64,000 nucleotides of DNA, from IMG/VR virus record IMGVR_UViG_3300046171_000197; one strand, written 5' to 3'. Position numbers and translations under genes: made by a program. The notes under the pieces were generated by a model, which ran no database searches, was not told where the DNA came from, and saw only the letters and a program-made list of their open reading frames with translations. Below, piece after piece: positions 22,877 to 35,918 of this stretch (position 1 is its first letter; every line of letters starts with the position of its first letter). Origin of the DNA: a virus.

Positions 22877-24445
22877 ATGAGTGATTCAGTTACTATTGAA
22901 GATTCAAAAGGAAATACTTTTGCGGAAGTAATCGATGTTATTGGTGTGTCTGAAGTTAAAAAGGCATTTCAACAATCTGTAAAAGAAGGTTCACTTCATA
23001 AGTGGTTCAAAGGTTCAAAATCTAAAGATGGCAAACCTGGTTGGGTGAATGTCGTCACTGGAGGAACTTGTGCAAGTGACAAACCTGGTGAGGGTACACC
23101 TAAATGTGTATCATCTTCAAAACGTGCTAGTATGAGTAAGTCAGAAAGACTCTCTGCCTCAAGAAGAAAGAAGAAAGCAGATCCTGGTCAACAAGGAAAA
23201 TCTGGTGCTGCAAAACCAACATACGTTTCAACTGATAAAAAGAAGAAAATGAATGAAGATGTAAAAAGAGATGAGTATGGTGATCCAATAGGAGGACCAA
23301 AGATTTCTAAGAAACAACTTAAAAAAAATCTTACATCAAATACACCTGACGAGCAACATACAACTACAACAAGTGAAGGGTATATTGATCTACCATTACA
23401 AGTAGAAATACCTCATACAGATGGTACATTTAGACTTGGACTTATGTTCCGTGAGAGTTTAGATATTGATAAGGGAATGCTCTTTATATTTGAGGAAGTA
23501 GGTCAACATTCATTCCATATGAAGAATACTCGTATTCCACTTGATATTGCATTTGTAAGAGAGGATGGAATTGTTGAAAGTATAAAAGAATTAACTCCTT
23601 ATAGTACATTGCCCGTATATTCTGATGGCAAAGTATTATTTGCAATCGAAGCAAATCGTGGTTGGTTCACAGAAAACAACGTGGAAGTTGGAGATGAAAT
23701 AGTATTAGGAGAAGCAAAAGATAAAAAAGGTAAGGGTAGTGGATCAAAAGATGCTTGCTATCACAAGGTTAAATCAAGATACTCTGTATGGCCAAGTGCA
23801 TATGCATCAGGTGCATTAGTTAAGTGTCGTAAAGTTGGTGCTGCAAACTGGGGTAATAAGTCAGAATCAGTTGAAATGAAGAATTATCTCGATAAGAAAG
23901 CAAAAATGCTGACTAAGAAAAGAGATGCACAATCTGATGCTGCTAAAAACAATCCTCATTTTGATAGCACACAACCTCACCATCAGGTAGAAATAAGTAT
24001 GAAGAAGTTGAATTAGATGAAAAGTGTTGGAAAGGTTATAAAAAGAAAGGTATGAAAACTATGTTTGGAAAGAGATATCCAAACTGTGTGAAGGCAGAAG
24101 AGTTTTCTAACTGGAGAGATGAACTAGGTTATGAGGGTAAGGACTGACTCAAAAAAGATTGAAGAAGCCAAGAGTCCTGCTTGGCAAAGAAAGGCAGGTA
24201 AGAGTGAGTCAGGTGGACTGAATAAAAAAGGTGTAGCATCTTATCGTGCTGCGAATCCTGGTTCTAAATTAAAAACTGCTGTTACTACAAAACCGTCTAA
24301 GTTAAAGAAAGGATCAAAAGCAGCAAACAGAAGAAAGTCATTCTGTTCTAGAATGAAAGGTATGAAAAAGAAATTAACCTCTGCAAAGACTGCTAGAGAT
24401 CCAGATTCAAGAATTAATAAGTCACTTCGTAAGTGGAACTGCTGA
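22877..24445 (+). CDS. Modular basic protein with embedded DUF192-like domain, probable internal head protein (reconstructed across frameshifts at ~23976 and ~24145)
   Basis: Modules GSLHKWF..KPGW..PKCV, GLMFRESL..GMLF..FHMKNT.IPLDIAF (DUF192-like), KDACYHKVK..WPSAYASG, KCWKGY..YPNCV (bridging frame 23984-24144) and SPAWQRK..RRKSFC..KWNC. CTAAATA late-type promoter at ~22848. Confidence 0.65.
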
Positions 24446-24451
24446 TAAATT

Positions 24452-26098
24452 ATGAATGATAATGTATACCTTGGTAATCCTAATTTAAAGAAAGCAAATA
24501 CTCCTCATGAATTTACAGAGGAACAGGTCATTGAGTTTATCAAATGTAAGAATGACCCAGTTTATTTTGCAAGAAAATATATTAAGATTGTTTCTCTTGA
24601 TGAAGGACTAACTCAGTTTCATCCTTATGATTTTCAAGAGAAGTTAATTAGAAACTTTCACGAGAATAGATTTAACATATGTAAGATGCCTCGACAGACT
24701 GGTAAATCTACCACATCTGTATCATATCTTTTACATTATGCTGTTTTTAATGATAGTACAAATATTGGTATTCTTGCCAACAAAGCAGCAACTGCCCGTG
24801 ATTTATTAGGTAGATTGCAAACTGCATATGAGAATTTACCTAAATGGATGCAACAGGGTATCATATCTTGGAATAAGGGATCACTGGAGTTAGAAAATGG
24901 TTCAAAAATACTCGCTGCAAGTACGTCTGCTTCTGCTGTCAGAGGTATGTCTTTCAACATTCTTTTTCTGGATGAGTTCGCCTTTGTTCCTAATCATATT
25001 GCTGAGTCATTCTTTGCCTCAGTATATCCTACTATCACTTCTGGTAAAAACACCAAAGTCATAATGGTTTCAACCCCTCACGGATGAACCATTTTTATAG
25101 GTATTGGCATGATGCTGAAAGAGGAAAGAACGAATATATCCCAACAGATGTTCATTGGTCTGAAGTACCAGGTAGAGATGACGTATGGAAAGAGCAAACA
25201 ATTGCAAACACATCAGAGCAGCAATTTAAAGTTGAGTTTGAATGCGAGTTCTTAGGATCAATTAATACATTGATAGCACCTTCCATATTGAGAAATATGG
25301 TATATGACACTCCAATTACTAAGAATGCTGGATTAGATATCTACGAAAAACCAGAAAAAGATCATAATTATATTACTACAGTTGACGTAGCAAGAGGTCT
25401 TGGTAATGACTATTCTGCATTTATAGTATTTGACGTAACTCAGTTTCCATATAAAGTAGTTGCTAAGTATCGAAATAATGAAATTAAACCTATGCTATTT
25501 CCAAATGTAATACTTGATGTAGCAAAGGGATTTAATAATGCTTACATATTAGTTGAAGTAAATGACATAGGAGACCAAGTTGCCAGCATACTTCAGTATG
25601 ATCTTGAATATGAAAACATACTTATGGCGTCGATGAGAGGAAGAAATGGTCAAATAGTTGGTCAGGGGTTTTCAGGTAAGAAAACTCAATTGGGTGTTAG
25701 AACGACTGCATCAGTGAAAAAAACTAGGATGCAGTAACCTGAAAACACTAATTGAAGATCATAAGTTAATCACTTGCGACTATGAAATCATATCAGAATT
25801 GACTACATTTGCACAAAAACACAACTCATTTGAAGCAGAAGAGGGATGTAATGATGACTTGGCTATGTGTTTGGTGATATTTGCATGGTTAGTTCAGCAA
25901 GAATATTTCAAAGAAATGACCGATAATGATATAAGAAAGAGAATATATGAAGAACAAAAGAATCAAATCGAACAAGACATGGCACCTTTTGGTTTTATTG
26001 AAACTGGATTAGAAGATAGTCAGTTTGTTGACAAAGACGGTGAAGTGTGGCATACTGATGAATACGGTGATCGTTCTTACATGTGGGACTATAGATGA
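24452..26098 (+). CDS. gp17: Terminase large subunit gp17 (reconstructed across frameshifts at ~25083 and ~25722)
   Basis: YLGNPNLK, Walker A PRQTGKST, Walker B ILFLDEFAFV, VSTPHG.MNHFY, nuclease VDVARG and GCNDDLAM. Confidence 0.95.
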
Positions 26099-26553: not shown

Positions 26554-28723
26554 ATGCCACTAAATTTAGCATCTCCTGGAATTGTAGTTAGAGAAGTTGA
26601 CTTAACCGTTGGTCGTGTAGACACAGCATCGGATAAAGTTGGTGCTCTTGTTGGTCCATTTGCCAAAGGAGCAGTTGACCTTCCAATTTTGGTAGAGACA
26701 GAGCAAGATTTACTAGATAATTTTGGAAAACCATACTCTGCCGATAAGCACTATGAGTATTGGATGGTTGCATCATCATACCTTGGCTATGGAGGACCAT
26801 TAAGGGTCGTCAGAGCAGATGATGATGATTTAAAGAATGCTTTTTCAGGAACTGCAGGAAGCATAAAGATAAAAAGTACAGAACATTATAATGATCTAGG
26901 ATATGATGGATCAACTATAACTGGTGTTACAGTTGCTGCAAGAAATCCTGGTTCATGGGCAAACAACTTAAAAGTTGCCATAATTGATGACTTAGCAGAT
27001 CAAGTATTACAATTCAGGTACACTACCTTCAAATATACAAGTTGGTTTTGGTATTACTCAAGCTATTCCAGCAGACACTGTTTTAGCAGGTTCTGGAACA
27101 ACATCATTATTGTCAGGTTACTTTAAGGGTATTATTACAGAAGTTGATACTACATTAAAGAAAGTATCTGTTAAGATATTAGAATCAGTAACAGAAGCAG
27201 GTGTTTCGACATCAGTAGATTACCAACCAAACGGACTCTATAAGTTTGGTAATACAGTAGCAACAGTTCACAATAATAGTGGAGTTGCAACAGGAACTGG
27301 ATCACCAAGTTCAAACGTTGACTGGTTTGATTCACAAGCAATTCAACTAACAAACTCAACAATTAATTGGAATAACATTGCAGAGAGACCTGGTACATCA
27401 TCATTTGCTGCTGCAAGAGACTCAAGATTTGATGAAGTTCATGTAGTTGTGATTGACGATACTGGTGAAGTAACTGGTAACGCAGGTACAGTTTTAGAAA
27501 AACACTTAGGACTTTCAAAGGCAAAAGATGGTTTATACTCATTAGGATCACCATCCTATTGGAGAAAATACCTTTATAATAATTCAACAAATATATTTGC
27601 TGGTGGAGCACCTGCTGGAATCGTAACGACTTCGTTTGGTGCTGGTGCAACTAACTATACACTTTCAGCAGATGTAGGTTGGGATCAAAACGCACAAGGT
27701 ATTAGATATGCTGGTATTGGTGTTACAACACTAACACTAAGTGGTGGTAAAAACTATGATGGTGGATCAGATGAAGAAGCAGCTGGTGCATTCCAAGTTA
27801 CTTTGGCTGGACTTGCAGGAGGTTATCAACTCTTTGAAGATGATAACTTAAACTCAGCAGACTTTATCTAATGGGTTCTGCCAATCATACAAAGGAAACT
27901 TGTCAATCATTAGCAAATAAAATTATCTCTGTTGCAGAGATAAGAAAGGATGCAGTTGCATTCGTATCACCCAATAGAGGTTCATTCCTCAGTGATGGAA
28001 GTGCAGGTTCTGTTGTGGTATTCGATGCAAATCAAATTACAGACAACGTAATTAGTTTCTTTGCTCCTGTATCATCTTCATCATTCGCAGTATTTGATAG
28101 CACATACAAGTACATGTATGACAGATTTGCAGATACCTTCAGGTATGTTCCAATGAACGGAGACATTGCTGGATTATGTGCAAGAAACGATATTAACAAC
28201 TTCCCTTGGTTCTCACCAGCGGGAACTGCAAGAGGTGCAATACTTAATGCAGTTAAATTAGCATACAATCCATCTCAAACACAAAGAGATCAGTTGTATT
28301 CTAACAGAGTTAATCCAATTATCTTCTCACCTGGTGGAGGAATAGTCCTCTTCGGTGATAAGACTGGTTTATCAAAAGCATCAGCATTTGATAGGATAAA
28401 CGTTCGTAGATTGTTTATCTTCCTTGAAAATGCAATATCTGGTGCTGCAAGAGATCAGATGTTTGAATTCAACGATGAAATCACAAGGACAAACTTTGTG
28501 AATATTGTTGAACCTTTCCTTCGTGATGTACAGGCAAAACGAGGAATCTTTGATTTCAGAGTTATATGTGATGAAACAAATAACACTGCTGCAATCATAG
28601 ATAGTAATGAATTTGTCGCAGACATATTCATTCAAACCTGCAAGATCAATTAACTTCATCGGTCTAACCTTCGTTGCTACACGAACAGGTGTATCATTCG
28701 AGGAAGTAATCGGTTCTGTTTAA
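26554..28723 (+). CDS. gp18: Tail sheath protein gp18 (reconstructed across frameshifts at ~27017, ~27868, ~28633)
   Basis: MPLNLASPGIVVREVDLT, PWFSPAGTARG, GDKTG..SAFDRINVRRLF, FEFNDEITR, C-terminal PARSINFIGLTFVATRTGVSFEE in shifted frame. Confidence 0.95.
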
Positions 28724-31304: not shown

Positions 31305-31841
31305 ATGGCAGCTTTTAAGGTCGTACAAAAAATAGCATCTGTTACTGGAAACGCAACAAGTGCATCAATACCGTTAAAGTCGGGTTATCTCAGAGTAATA
31401 CCAGCTGGTGGTGATGCATTTGTTGAGGTTGGAACTAACCCAACAGCAACAGACGATAGTAGCATATATGTTCCTGTTAAAACTCCAATGATTTTTAAGG
31501 AAAGTGTTGCTTCAATACAAACAGTATCAGTAACAAATGCATCTGCAGCAATTAAGTTTGGATTTCCTTCTGGAACAGACGCACCATTTGTTGTTGGTGA
31601 TACTGTTGCAGTAACAGGATGTGCACCCACTGGTATTAATACTACAAGTGCATCAGTTACAGCAGTCACAGGACCAGATCCAATAAACGGAGTTCAGTCG
31701 GGAACTGTAACTCTAGGTTATGGTGATGCTAATTTATCTGCTACTGATGCAGTAGGTGAAATTAGACGAGTTGTAAAAGTTGCAGTTCGTGGAAGTGGTA
31801 AGACACATATTTCAGAAGTTCAAATCGTAGGAGATTTCTAA
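31305..31841 (+). CDS. Hypothetical beta-rich virion protein
   Basis: 178 aa, preceded by CATAAATA (31272-31279); stop overlaps the gp21 start. Confidence 0.7.
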   Translation: MAAFKVVQKIASVTGNATSASIPLKSGYLRVIPAGGDAFVEVGTNPTATDDSSIYVPVKTPMIFKESVASIQTVSVTNASAAIKFGFPSGTDAPFVVGDTVAVTGCAPTGINTTSASVTAVTGPDPINGVQSGTVTLGYGDANLSATDAVGEIRRVVKVAVRGSGKTHISEVQIVGDF

Positions 31842-32491
31842 TGAAACTAATTACAGAGGAAGTTTCAAGAGTTAAATTTATCGTCGAAGGAAAAGGCGCT
31901 AAAAAGAAAATGTATATTGAAGGTGTATTCCTTCAAGGTGAAATTAAGAATCGTAATGGAAGAATGTATCCACTCCAAACTCTTGCAAAAGAAGTTGGTA
32001 GATACAACGAAAGTTTTGTTAGTAAAGGTAGAGCATTAGGAGAACTCGGACATCCTGATGGTCCTACTGTAAACCTTGATCGTGTATCTCATAAGATTAC
32101 TTCTCTTCGACAAGAAGGAAATAATTTTATTGGAAAGGCACAATTACTTTCTACACCTATGGGTAAGATTGCACAAAATCTTATTGGTGAAGGTGTAACT
32201 CTTGGAGTATCTTCTCGTGGTGTTGGATCACTAAAAGAAGACCTTCATGGATGCAAAGTTGTAGGTGAAGATTTCATGTTAGCAACTGCTGCTGATATCG
32301 TTGCCGATCCTTCTGCACCAGACGCATTTGTATCTGGAATTATGGAAGGAAAAGAGTGGATTTGGGAAGGAGGAATTCTTCGTGAACAACTCGCACAAAA
32401 CACACAAAAGAGAATCAATACTCTTGTAGACCAAAGAAAATTAGAAGAACATAAGTTGAATCTATTCAACGATTTTCTCTCTAATCTCTAA
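31841..32491 (+). CDS. gp21: Prohead protease gp21
   Basis: MKLITE, IEGVFLQ..KNRNGRMY, ALGELGHP, GVSSRGVGS, DIVADPSAPDA. Confidence 0.96.
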   Translation: MKLITEEVSRVKFIVEGKGAKKKMYIEGVFLQGEIKNRNGRMYPLQTLAKEVGRYNESFVSKGRALGELGHPDGPTVNLDRVSHKITSLRQEGNNFIGKAQLLSTPMGKIAQNLIGEGVTLGVSSRGVGSLKEDLHGCKVVGEDFMLATAADIVADPSAPDAFVSGIMEGKEWIWEGGILREQLAQNTQKRINTLVDQRKLEEHKLNLFNDFLSNL

Positions 32492-33719: not shown

Positions 33720-35129
33720 ATGCAAGCCCCAATTAATACAGAGGCTTTACAAGAGAAATGGGGACCACTACTAAACGCAGAAGGACAGGATAAAATATCT
33801 GACCCTCATCGTAGAATGGTTACAGCAGTTCTCTTGGAAAACCAAGAAAAAGCATTAAGAGAAGAGAGGGAGTTCTTAACAGAGCAACCTACAATGAATA
33901 CAGATCCAGGTGGAACAGGTAATCCTGGTTTTAGTGGATCTGCAGCATCACCAGTCGCAGGTTTCGACCCTGTTCTAATCTCATTGATTAGAAGAGCAAT
34001 GCCTAATTTAGTGGCATACGACCTTGCTGGTGTACAACCAATGAATGGTCCAACAGGACTTATATTCGCAATGAGATCTCGTCTTGAAGGTCCATCTGGA
34101 GATGAGACATTCTACAACGAGGTAGATTCAGCATTCTCTGGACAGAATGAAGGAAGAACTAATACTGGCGGCATGGTTGACGCACAGGTTGGTTTAGGTA
34201 CAACTGCACAGTCAGGTAACAATCCAAGTCTTCTTGACCCATCTGCTACTGGTACTAGTGTACAGTCTAAGGCATACAACGTCGGTCAGGGTATGTCCAC
34301 ATCCGAGTCAGAAGCACTCGATGGTACAGGTGCAGCAGCATTCCATCAGATGGCATTCTCAATCGAGAAAGTCACTGTTACTGCGAAGTCTAGAGCACTA
34401 AAAGCAGAGTACAGTTTAGAACTTGCTCAAGACCTTAAAGCAATCCACGGATTGAATGCAGAGGCTGAGTTAGCAAACATTCTATCAACTGAGATTCTTG
34501 CTGAGATCAACAGAGAAGTTATTAGAACAATCTATAACGTTGCAGAACCAGGTGCTGCTGTCAATACAGCAACAAGTGGTACTTTCGACTTAGACGTTGA
34601 CTCAAACGGAAGATGGTCTGTTGAGAAGTTCAAAGGTTTGATCTTCCAGATCGAAAGAGATGCTAACGCAATCGCACAAAGAACTCGTCGTGGAAAGGGC
34701 AACATGATCCTATGTTCCGCAGACGTTGCTTCAGCATTAACAATGGCAGGTGTACTTGATTACACTCCAGCACTTAATGCAAACTTAAATGTAGATGACA
34801 CAGGTAATACATTTGCTGGTGTTCTTGCAGGTAAGTTCAGAGTCTACATTGACCCATATGCTGCAAACGTTGCTGCTTCACAGTACTACGTTGCAGGTTA
34901 TAAAGGTACTTCACCTTATGACGCAGGTATATTCTACTGCCCATATGTTCCATTACAGATGGTAAGAAGTGTCGGAGCAGACAACTTCCAACCAAAAATT
35001 GGATTTAAGACTCGTTACGGAATCGTTGCAAACCCATTCGCAAAGGGTGCAACACTCACCACTCCTGGTGTACTTTCACGTAACAGTAACGTATACTACA
35101 GAAGAGTTAAGGTTGCAAACCTAATGTAA
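33720..35129 (+). CDS. gp23: Major capsid protein gp23
   Basis: EKW.PLL, LLENQE, AGFDPVLISLIRRAMPNL, GVQPM.GPTGLIFAMR, KSRALKAEYSLELAQDLKAIHG, FQPKIGFKTRYG. Confidence 0.98.
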   Translation: MQAPINTEALQEKWGPLLNAEGQDKISDPHRRMVTAVLLENQEKALREEREFLTEQPTMNTDPGGTGNPGFSGSAASPVAGFDPVLISLIRRAMPNLVAYDLAGVQPMNGPTGLIFAMRSRLEGPSGDETFYNEVDSAFSGQNEGRTNTGGMVDAQVGLGTTAQSGNNPSLLDPSATGTSVQSKAYNVGQGMSTSESEALDGTGAAAFHQMAFSIEKVTVTAKSRALKAEYSLELAQDLKAIHGLNAEAELANILSTEILAEINREVIRTIYNVAEPGAAVNTATSGTFDLDVDSNGRWSVEKFKGLIFQIERDANAIAQRTRRGKGNMILCSADVASALTMAGVLDYTPALNANLNVDDTGNTFAGVLAGKFRVYIDPYAANVAASQYYVAGYKGTSPYDAGIFYCPYVPLQMVRSVGADNFQPKIGFKTRYGIVANPFAKGATLTTPGVLSRNSNVYYRRVKVANLM

Positions 35130-35151: not shown

Positions 35152-35181
35152 AAAGAGATTCCTTCGGGAGTCTCTTTTTTT
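35152..35181 (+). terminator. Rho-independent terminator with C(UUCG)G tetraloop
   Basis: AAAGAGATTCC-TTCG-GGAGTCTCTTT followed by a T run, just after gp23. Confidence 0.9.
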
Positions 35182-35211
35182 GTCTAAATACATATAAAGC
35201 TAAAACTACCG

Positions 35212-35370
35212 ATGAAAGCAAGTCCAAGAGAAACTCAACAGGCTCATCAAAATTATAAGAAGGTTTCTGAGCATTTAATCCGTGAAGGATATGCACCAAA
35301 TCAAGAATCTGCTGATGATATAATTAAGGGTATGAGTGAAGAGTGGTTTAATTTAATTATAGAAGAGTGA
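35212..35370 (+). CDS. Small late protein (52 aa), HLIxEGYA..MSEEW type
   Basis: MKASPRETQQAHQNYKKVSEHLIREGYAPNQESADDIIKGMSEEWFNLIIEE; CTAAATA at 35184-35190 upstream; GTGA overlap with the next gene; not in the ORF track. Confidence 0.65.
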   Translation: MKASPRETQQAHQNYKKVSEHLIREGYAPNQESADDIIKGMSEEWFNLIIEE

Positions 35371-35918
35371 AAAAGTTTGGTCAGTTTCTAAAAGAAGCTC
35401 CCACAATGAATACAGATCCATCTGGAACAGGTAATACTGGTTTCAGTGGTTCTGCATCATCACCAGTAGCAGGGTTTGATAAAACCCTATGGAATTATAT
35501 GGTGACTAATGCTTATCAGTCACCTATGGATTTAAGTTACAGGTGGTCTAATATATTTCCTGTTAAAAAATTGTCTCTTGAAGATATAGATAATATGGTT
35601 GACGCATCTAACGAATTTATAAACGTAATGAATAAAAGCACATTAACAAAAAGAACTTTTAAAGAGTTTAATGAACTGACAGAATCAAAGAAATGTCCTG
35701 CTGGAAAATACTATTGTTTTACTGATAAGAAATGTAAGAAGATTCCAGGCGGATATCGAATCGGATATGGTGGACGTTTAGCACCAGATCCAGAAAATGA
35801 AAAGAAAAATGGTAATGGCAACGGAAATGGAAATGGAAATGGAAATGGTAATGGTAACGGAAATGGCAATGGTAATGGTGGAGGAAACGGTGGCGGTGAT
35901 GGAGGAGGCGGTGAATAA
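35367..35918 (+). CDS. Putative internal head protein carrying a copy of the gp23 N-arm, a Cys module and a (GN)n tail
   Basis: MKKFGQFLKE leader, PTMNTDPSGTGNTGFSGSASSPVAGFD (gp23-like), KRTFKEF, KKCPAGKYYCFTDKKCKK, poly-NG tail; stop overlaps the gp3 start. Confidence 0.75.
   Translation: MKKFGQFLKEAPTMNTDPSGTGNTGFSGSASSPVAGFDKTLWNYMVTNAYQSPMDLSYRWSNIFPVKKLSLEDIDNMVDASNEFINVMNKSTLTKRTFKEFNELTESKKCPAGKYYCFTDKKCKKIPGGYRIGYGGRLAPDPENEKKNGNGNGNGNGNGNGNGNGNGNGNGGGNGGGDGGGGE
35400..35480 (+). repeat. 81-nt diverged duplicate of gp23 segment 33888-33968
   Basis: Manual alignment: 70/81 nt and 24/27 aa identical. Confidence 0.9.
35808..35912 (+). repeat. AAYGGN hexamer repeat encoding (Asn-Gly)n followed by poly-Gly
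   Basis: aatggtaatggcaacggaaatggaaatggaaatgga..., with synonymous codon variation between units. Confidence 0.85.

Follow-up and report, generated by a model that had tools for sequence, protein, structure and literature searches.

A modular protein encoded beside gp23 in T4-like cyanophages carries a copy of the predicted mature N-terminus of the major capsid protein

In the unexpanded head of phage T4, an arm segment of gp23 (residues 66-105) lies inside, is disordered and is thought to contact the scaffold (PMC9546572). On head expansion the segment moves to the outer surface, where it becomes the N-arm and the N-fist (PMC9546572, PMC9958956). The N-fist, about 25 residues long, contacts four subunits (PMC9958956), and mutations that affect head length map to the arm segment (PMC9546572). 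The capsid-targeting sequence (CTS) of T4 is printed in 10.1101/2021.01.19.427310, the rule for sites cut by gp21 is given as L/I-x-E (PMC9026906), and a 2023 review called the selection and placing of minor internal proteins in T4-like heads unresolved (PMC9958956). In the gene table of PMC3037559, gp24 is absent from 16 of 16 cyanophages.

The DNA analysed here, a 64,000-nt stretch of IMG/VR record IMGVR_UViG_3300046171_000197 that we call the window, is from a marine T4-like phage and carries a head gene cluster of the T4-like cyanophage type. Two small ORFs, of 52 and 183 amino acids in that order, lie between gp23 and gp3 (Table 1), and the larger is the subject of this report. No gene for gp24 follows gp23 in the window, as the original prediction had noted; since gp24 is missing from the cyanophages tabulated in PMC3037559, this is the norm. 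The 52-aa ORF matched nothing in PHROG or Pfam, is 85-100% conserved within the window's clade, and also precedes a short, arm-less version of the downstream gene. The hexamer upstream of both ORFs resembles late promoters of the T4 type; hexamers of the TAAATA type occur 46 times on the plus strand of the window. We take the ORF at 31841-32491 to be of the gp21 type, from its position and similarity. The genes for terminase (gp17, 24452-26098) and tail sheath (gp18, 26554-28653) are each split over three ORFs, and several other genes are broken up likewise, a pattern that points to indel errors of the assembly and not to genuine interruptions. In two close relatives a gene sits between gp23 and the 52-aa ORF, one encoding 348 aa (L017:3105-4148, phrog_2558) and the other 465 aa with no match (L008:4377-5771); the two inserts are unrelated.

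Table 1. Features of the gp23 region and of the 183-aa ORF; positions are those of the window.
Feature	Position (nt)	Strand	Basis or remark
gp23, major capsid protein	33720..35129	+	phrog_138 6.9e-166; PF07068; T4 gp23 structures
Predicted FLTE maturation site of gp23 (residues 52-55), with the N-terminal arm that is the template of the copy (residues 56-83)	33873..33968	+	alignment to T4 gp23
Terminator-like hairpin and T run, 3' of gp23	35155..35181	+	visible on inspection of the sequence
TAAATA, late-promoter-like motif upstream of the 52-aa and 183-aa ORFs	35185..35190	+	sequence match
Conserved 52-aa ORF	35212..35370	+	overlaps start codon of the 183-aa ORF
183-aa modular ORF	35367..35918	+	GTG start; consists of leader, copy of the gp23 arm, module A, remnant of a second leader, Cys-containing module B and GN tail
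CTS-like leader, residues 1-10, ending L-K-E (8-10)	35367..35396	+	predicted gp21 site after E10; cleavage inferred
Copy of mature gp23 N-terminus, residues 11-38	35397..35480	+	repeat search, alignment, shuffles
Module A body, residues 39-94	35481..35648	+	C-terminal helix predicted
Internal leader-like stretch, residues 95-106, ending L-T-E	35649..35684	+	second predicted gp21 site
Module B (residues 107-147), a three-Cys motif of basic character, net +7	35685..35807	+	sequence; relatives including S-SM2_109
Low-complexity GN/GG tail, residues 148-183	35808..35915	+	sequence

Residues 12-38 of the 183-aa ORF (35400-35480) and residues 57-83 of gp23 (33888-33968) are identical at 24 of 27 amino acids and 70 of 81 nucleotides, and seven of the ten codon differences are synonymous; a recount reproduced all of these figures, which the original prediction had reported. 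A repeat search of the window returned the match as a direct repeat of 97 nt, 82% identical, at 33871 and 35383. The best ungapped match of the copy's 27-mer within gp23 begins at residue 57 and was equalled by none of 2000 shuffles. The cleavage context in the window's gp23, FLTE/Q, aligns with FLTE/A in T4 gp23, where the mature chain starts at residue 66; since T4 gp23 shares this site, the copy starts at the predicted mature N-terminus. The excess of synonymous differences had been taken to suggest selection on the peptide, an argument that is weak on its own because gp23 alleles of the same arm type themselves differ by up to 19 nt.

The arrangement is not a product of faulty assembly. 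Module A, the body that follows the copy, is present at 17 of 80 IMG/VR loci (L005-L021), the gene occurs in further metagenome contigs, and arm plus body were found together in 20 distinct alleles from viral and metagenome contigs. On this evidence chimera or misassembly is rejected.

The leader in front of the copy was described earlier as of the T4 CTS type with a gp21-type L-x-E, and it does fit the T4 pattern: M, K, an aromatic residue at position 4, F7, a hydrophobic residue at position 8 and E10, with predicted cleavage after L-K-E. Leaders of the same CTS-like type are found in 64 of 114 distinct module-A proteins; 102 of the 114 have either this or another E-terminated leader, and L or I stands at position -2 of the leader end in 103. 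Module A itself comprises 1058 clusters at 90% and 84 representatives at 50%, and is free-standing in S-SM2_108 and in S-SKS1 SWZG_00088. A Pfam search with its body found no family. Comparison with a profile of gp23 past the arm gave a probability of 0.07%, that is, no homology to gp23 beyond the arm, and the profiles of tail-tube gp19 and gp3 gave 1.9% and 2.5%; on profile comparison, both a truncated gp23 paralogue and a relative of gp19, gp3, gp22 or gp21 are rejected. The AlphaFold2 model of module A is poorly ordered (pLDDT 56, pTM 0.23) and mostly coil, with one helix at residues 71-104.

Residues 95-106 are likely the seam of a fusion between the module A part and module B, because the short relatives L022, L027 and L028 start with a leader of this kind directly before module B. 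Leader and module B alone, with no arm, form a common short gene 3' of gp23, and module B also occurs inside long, shuffled polyproteins of the T4-GC119 type, e.g. S-SM2_109. The relative L027, whose gp23 is 95% identical to that of the window and has the same arm type, carries only the short gene here and lacks module A; at this place, at any rate, a phage can do without the tagged module. Many module-A proteins, among them P0082, P0018, P0046, L002:5965-6420 and L004:4959-5459, have a second arm-like motif that comes after an internal E site and before a lysine-rich tail of the phrog_3286 or phrog_696 type.

The locus is not a single odd case: the tag runs through the whole module-A family and heads other protein bodies too. 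The N-terminus of the family follows the pattern E-x-PTN...G[FY]...AG[FY]D. Cyanomyovirus gp23 arms have this same consensus and are hypervariable, 149 distinct ones being counted. We searched 130 module-A-bearing records for gp23, most of them fragments without it, and kept 18 of 38 candidate pairs after reducing the window's clade to one and setting aside duplicates and the fused L150. Similarity to the arm of the same genome averaged 0.432 in these pairs, against 0.251 +/- 0.035 when the pairs were permuted (p 1e-5). Leaving out the window's clade and allowing each lineage a single pair left 14 pairs, which averaged 0.419 against 0.260 (p 8e-5). The arm lengths of module-A proteins also follow those of their own gp23 (Spearman 0.76). 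The own arm ranked within the top 5% of 148 background arms in seven of the 18 pairs, and the other 11 fell outside, several of them clearly so (L193/L152 ranks 139 of 148).

We define the tag as an N-terminus that is nearer to the mature N-terminus of its own gp23 than to other gp23 arms. The window's ORF has such an N-terminus; five of 148 background arms outscored its own, the top one being an allele of the same clade, L012. Mantel tests were based on FastTree trees of the 18 paired genomes. In these tests the bodies of module A and gp23 go together (r 0.587). Neither arm is coupled to the tree of its own gene (r 0.03 and -0.02), yet with both trees removed in a partial test the two arms still correlate (r 0.243, p 0.015). 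The clearest independent case of tracking is S-SM2, which has a different arm type and a copy 11 kb from gp23; 19 of 23 residues are identical, and 14 of the 19 are written with different codons. In this lineage the comparison of copy and gp23 gives pS 0.795 and pN 0.114, with an omega of 0.17 among seven copies. Two sister phages changed both arms together (L383/L319 and L394/L364).

The gp23 arms of L186, L193, L194 and L383 are of one short type and lie on distant branches of the gp23 tree, which suggests that the arm is exchanged between phages as a cassette. In L150:4418-5314 (the same DNA as L396), the gp23 propeptide and arm share one reading frame with a module A body and a DUF192 module; the fusion is due either to a genuine crossover in the common arm or to a jump of the assembly over the repeat.

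In the clade of the window the copy goes back to a single, fairly recent capture from gp23, and it is held more loosely than gp23. The co-tracking test proposed originally has two outcomes, positive across distant genomes and negative here. A tree of 20 ORF arms and 14 gp23 arms, from which L443 and L488 were omitted for having arms of another length, parts the two groups by a single branch (98/98), and concerted evolution with the own gp23 allele is rejected inside the clade on the strength of that split. The window's copy differs from the other ORF copies at 0-15 nt and from gp23 arms of the same type at 9-21 nt, and the gp23 arm nearest to it is not that of its own gp23. Pooled pairwise omega, a rough measure because the pairs are not independent, is 0.50 for the ORF arm, 0.098 for the body, 0.069 for module B and 0.187 for the gp23 arm, while pS is 0.206 in the ORF arm and 0.394 in the body. 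One allele, L016:457-978, is half-converted: the 5' half of its tag is of the family-consensus type and the 3' half matches the clade's gp23 arm.

The tag recurs on three unrelated bodies: module A, gp190/T4-GC426 and T4 gp61.1. When 10 complete or long records were searched with an arm profile, 7 of them gave a second place in addition to gp23, and one such place is a gp190-like gene near the primase gene (T4-GC426; phrog_696, labelled 'major head protein'; 288 phage records). Tags of gp190 were examined in 20 cultured genomes and scored in 19, S-RIM2 being dropped. The own gp23 arm fell in the top 5% of 159 background arms for 13 of the 19 (p 1e-5) and outside it for six; with the gp23 tree partialled out the relation is weaker (r 0.19, p 0.048), and the phages are not independent. 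Many gp190 proteins are leaderless, with Met directly at the arm, and so mimic the cleaved form. In the gp190 of P-RSM6, different codons are used at 14 of 21 identical residues.

According to Table S8 of PMC3037559, a virion proteome contained T4-GC426, with 17 counts, and T4-GC119, with 13; these records are at the level of the family, their assignment to S-SM1 is our reading of a column that bears no heading, and the gp190 tag was read in other phages. In the same supplement the module A cluster (S-SM2_108, T4-GC1207) has no proteomic record. The window has its own basic polyprotein of the T4-GC119 type at 22877-24445, spread over two ORFs; its modules are of the DUF192 and DUF6321 kinds and its linkers end in E. 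Relatives exceed 1000 aa and have their modules shuffled.

In T4 the carrier is gp61.1 (54 aa, NP_049649.1, phrog_1823), which consists of a CTS-type leader ending in I-K-E, a gp23 copy and a run of lysines. The copy is identical to gp23 residues 66-93 at 14 of 28 positions without gaps, different codons being used at 9 of the 14. The best match falls exactly at gp23 residue 66, and none of 2000 shuffles reached it; against the 149 arms of cyanophage type, the gp61.1 arm scored at most 0.16. The span copied corresponds to the N-fist of about 25 residues.

We propose, with a probability of roughly 45%, that the protein is packaged and cut by gp21, and that its copy then binds the N-fist site on the gp23 shell and tethers the cargo modules. 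The leader would bring the 183-aa protein, presumably expressed late, into the prohead core, and gp21 is predicted to cut after E10 and near E100-E106. The freed copy would bind a site on the gp23 shell that is normally taken by gp23's own N-fist, and once bound would hold the cargo modules to the capsid. The sites so occupied might be the few left vacant by the geometry of the lattice, for example at the portal vertex, though this is a speculative guess. Recombination at the flanks common to gp23 (E-x-PTN ... AG[FY]D) would likely refresh the copy now and then, and between refreshes selection would hold it, more loosely than gp23.

Since the leader would already give entry to the core, the most likely role of the copy is one on the shell once cleavage has taken place, and its match to the own gp23 is what would be expected of a binding site that changes together with the arm. 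T4 gp61.1 and the gp190 forms that lack a leader also lead us to prefer shell binding over an address for the scaffold. Conservation of the peptide while synonymous sites are saturated in some lineages is consistent with shell binding; against it stand the clade's copy, which ignores its own gp23 allele at an omega of about 0.5, and the pairs outside the top 5%, 11 of 18 for module A and 6 of 19 for gp190. The gene of L027 without module A, the weak partial Mantel result for gp190 and the lack of a proteomic record for module A also count against it. The N-fist site of the expanded T4 shell lies outside, so that a protein packaged internally would need to make its way out just as the arm of gp23 does. 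The original prediction had the copy dock in a groove of the inner lattice, which misfits T4, where the arm goes to the outer surface on expansion (PMC9546572, PMC9958956). It had also suggested a filler at vertices or the portal and noted the missing gp24; a substitute for gp24 is unlikely in view of T4, which has gp24 and a tagged gp61.1 alike, and the argument from a missing gp24 is rejected, as the gene is absent throughout the cyanophages of PMC3037559.

A wider version of shell binding is more tentative. From T4 to the marine cyanophages there may be an overlooked second head-addressing system, in which a self-mimic of the N-fist, re-templated from the own gp23 and carrying interchangeable cargo, would plug vacant N-fist sites (e.g. 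at the portal vertex) and tether that cargo to the shell. T4 gp61.1 would be its minimal form.

In the strongest alternative, an unlikely one, the copy is an address for the prohead core that binds the scaffold (gp22) or the protease as gp23's arm does before expansion, thereby helping to package the cargo, and has no role in the mature shell. The location of T4 gp23 residues 66-105 inside the unexpanded head, their presumed contact with the scaffold and the length mutants there (PMC9546572) suit such an address, and in the many leaderless gp190 proteins the arm could be the sole one. However, 102 of 114 module-A proteins already have a CTS-like or E-terminated leader, and leader plus module B is common without the arm, so that the arm looks additional to targeting; the start of the copy also coincides with the mature N-terminus, both in T4 and in the gp190 forms that have no leader.

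The loose hold on the copy in the window's clade can be read as a sign that it is a neutral by-product, which we consider rather improbable. Flanks common to gp23 would let ectopic recombination overwrite the middle, which then decays, and only the flanks would matter. The single recent capture (pS 0.206 against 0.394 in the body, omega 0.5), the half-converted allele L016, the L150 fusion, whether real or misassembled, and the many non-tracking pairs all fit. What such decay does not account for is a peptide kept while synonymous sites are saturated, with different codons at 14 of 19 residues in S-SM2, 14 of 21 in the gp190 of P-RSM6 and 9 of 14 in T4, and the flanks would still need a function.

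A slimmer chance falls to the copy as a decoy or timer of assembly, a free peptide that transiently fills gp23 N-fist sites and thereby delays or nucleates expansion or tunes head length. In T4 the arm is disordered until expansion and is the site of length mutants (PMC9546572), and T4 gp61.1 is hardly more than leader, copy and basic tail. Yet in the window's clade the cargo is more constrained than the tag (omega 0.10 and 0.07), which suits a tether, and the gp190 family is listed in mature virions (PMC3037559). That the extra copy is a donor cassette, a reservoir of variants for an exposed hypervariable surface loop of gp23, is very improbable: gp23 arms are indeed hypervariable and uncoupled from the gp23 tree, and module-A arms cover the same types, but of the two partners in the clade of the window the copy is the younger, and copies are N-terminal in intact ORFs under purifying selection, behind a protease-type site.

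By its sequence, the 183-aa ORF resembles a CTS-bearing head protein but is no homologue of IPI-III, gp24, gp190 or gp61.1. The T4 internal proteins IPI-IPIII have a 10-residue leader of the same pattern, a gp21-type site and small basic cargo; the passages of PMC9026906 and 10.1101/2021.01.19.427310 consulted mention no gp23-arm copy for them, and PHROG and Pfam gave the mature part no match to IPI, IPII or IPIII and no family common to modules A or B. The T4-GC119 polyproteins, a family detected in virions (PMC3037559), have E-terminated linkers and, in S-SM2_109 and many metagenomic relatives, module B, but they are much longer, the window's member has no arm copy, and the S-SM1 member has no module B in the part compared. 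A gp24-type vertex protein or gp23 paralogue is rejected, there being no HK97-fold homology beyond the N-arm (0.07%; model mostly coil).

The openly accessible literature searched contains no description of a tag that copies the capsid arm, and describes no role for the similarity behind the 'major head protein' label of gp190. New here are the carrier family (module A), the tree-controlled test of tracking and the drift of the copy after capture. The gp190-like proteins (T4-GC426) come close in design, with an N-terminal tag matching the own gp23 arm and a family listed in virions (PMC3037559), and in S-SKS1 a module-A protein occupies the gene position of gp190. They differ in having an unrelated body, in being often leaderless and in lying between gp189 and the primase gene, whereas the window's ORF lies after gp23; the ORF did not match phrog_696, the gp190 body, so only the tag design is common. 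If the proposal is true, it would explain why a near-ubiquitous cyanophage gene is automatically labelled 'major head protein'.

T4 gp61.1 likewise has a CTS-type leader, a copy of the N-terminus of its own gp23* and then basic residues. Its gene, annotated 'hypothetical protein', lies upstream of the primase gene and encodes almost no cargo and an arm of the T4 type, whereas the ORF of the window follows gp23 and has modules A and B as its cargo; the gp61.1 families phrog_1823 and phrog_2086 are not among the ORF's PHROG hits. A tag that copies the capsid N-terminus, varies along with it between lineages and also occurs in T4 would give the best-studied phage a head component that has so far been overlooked.
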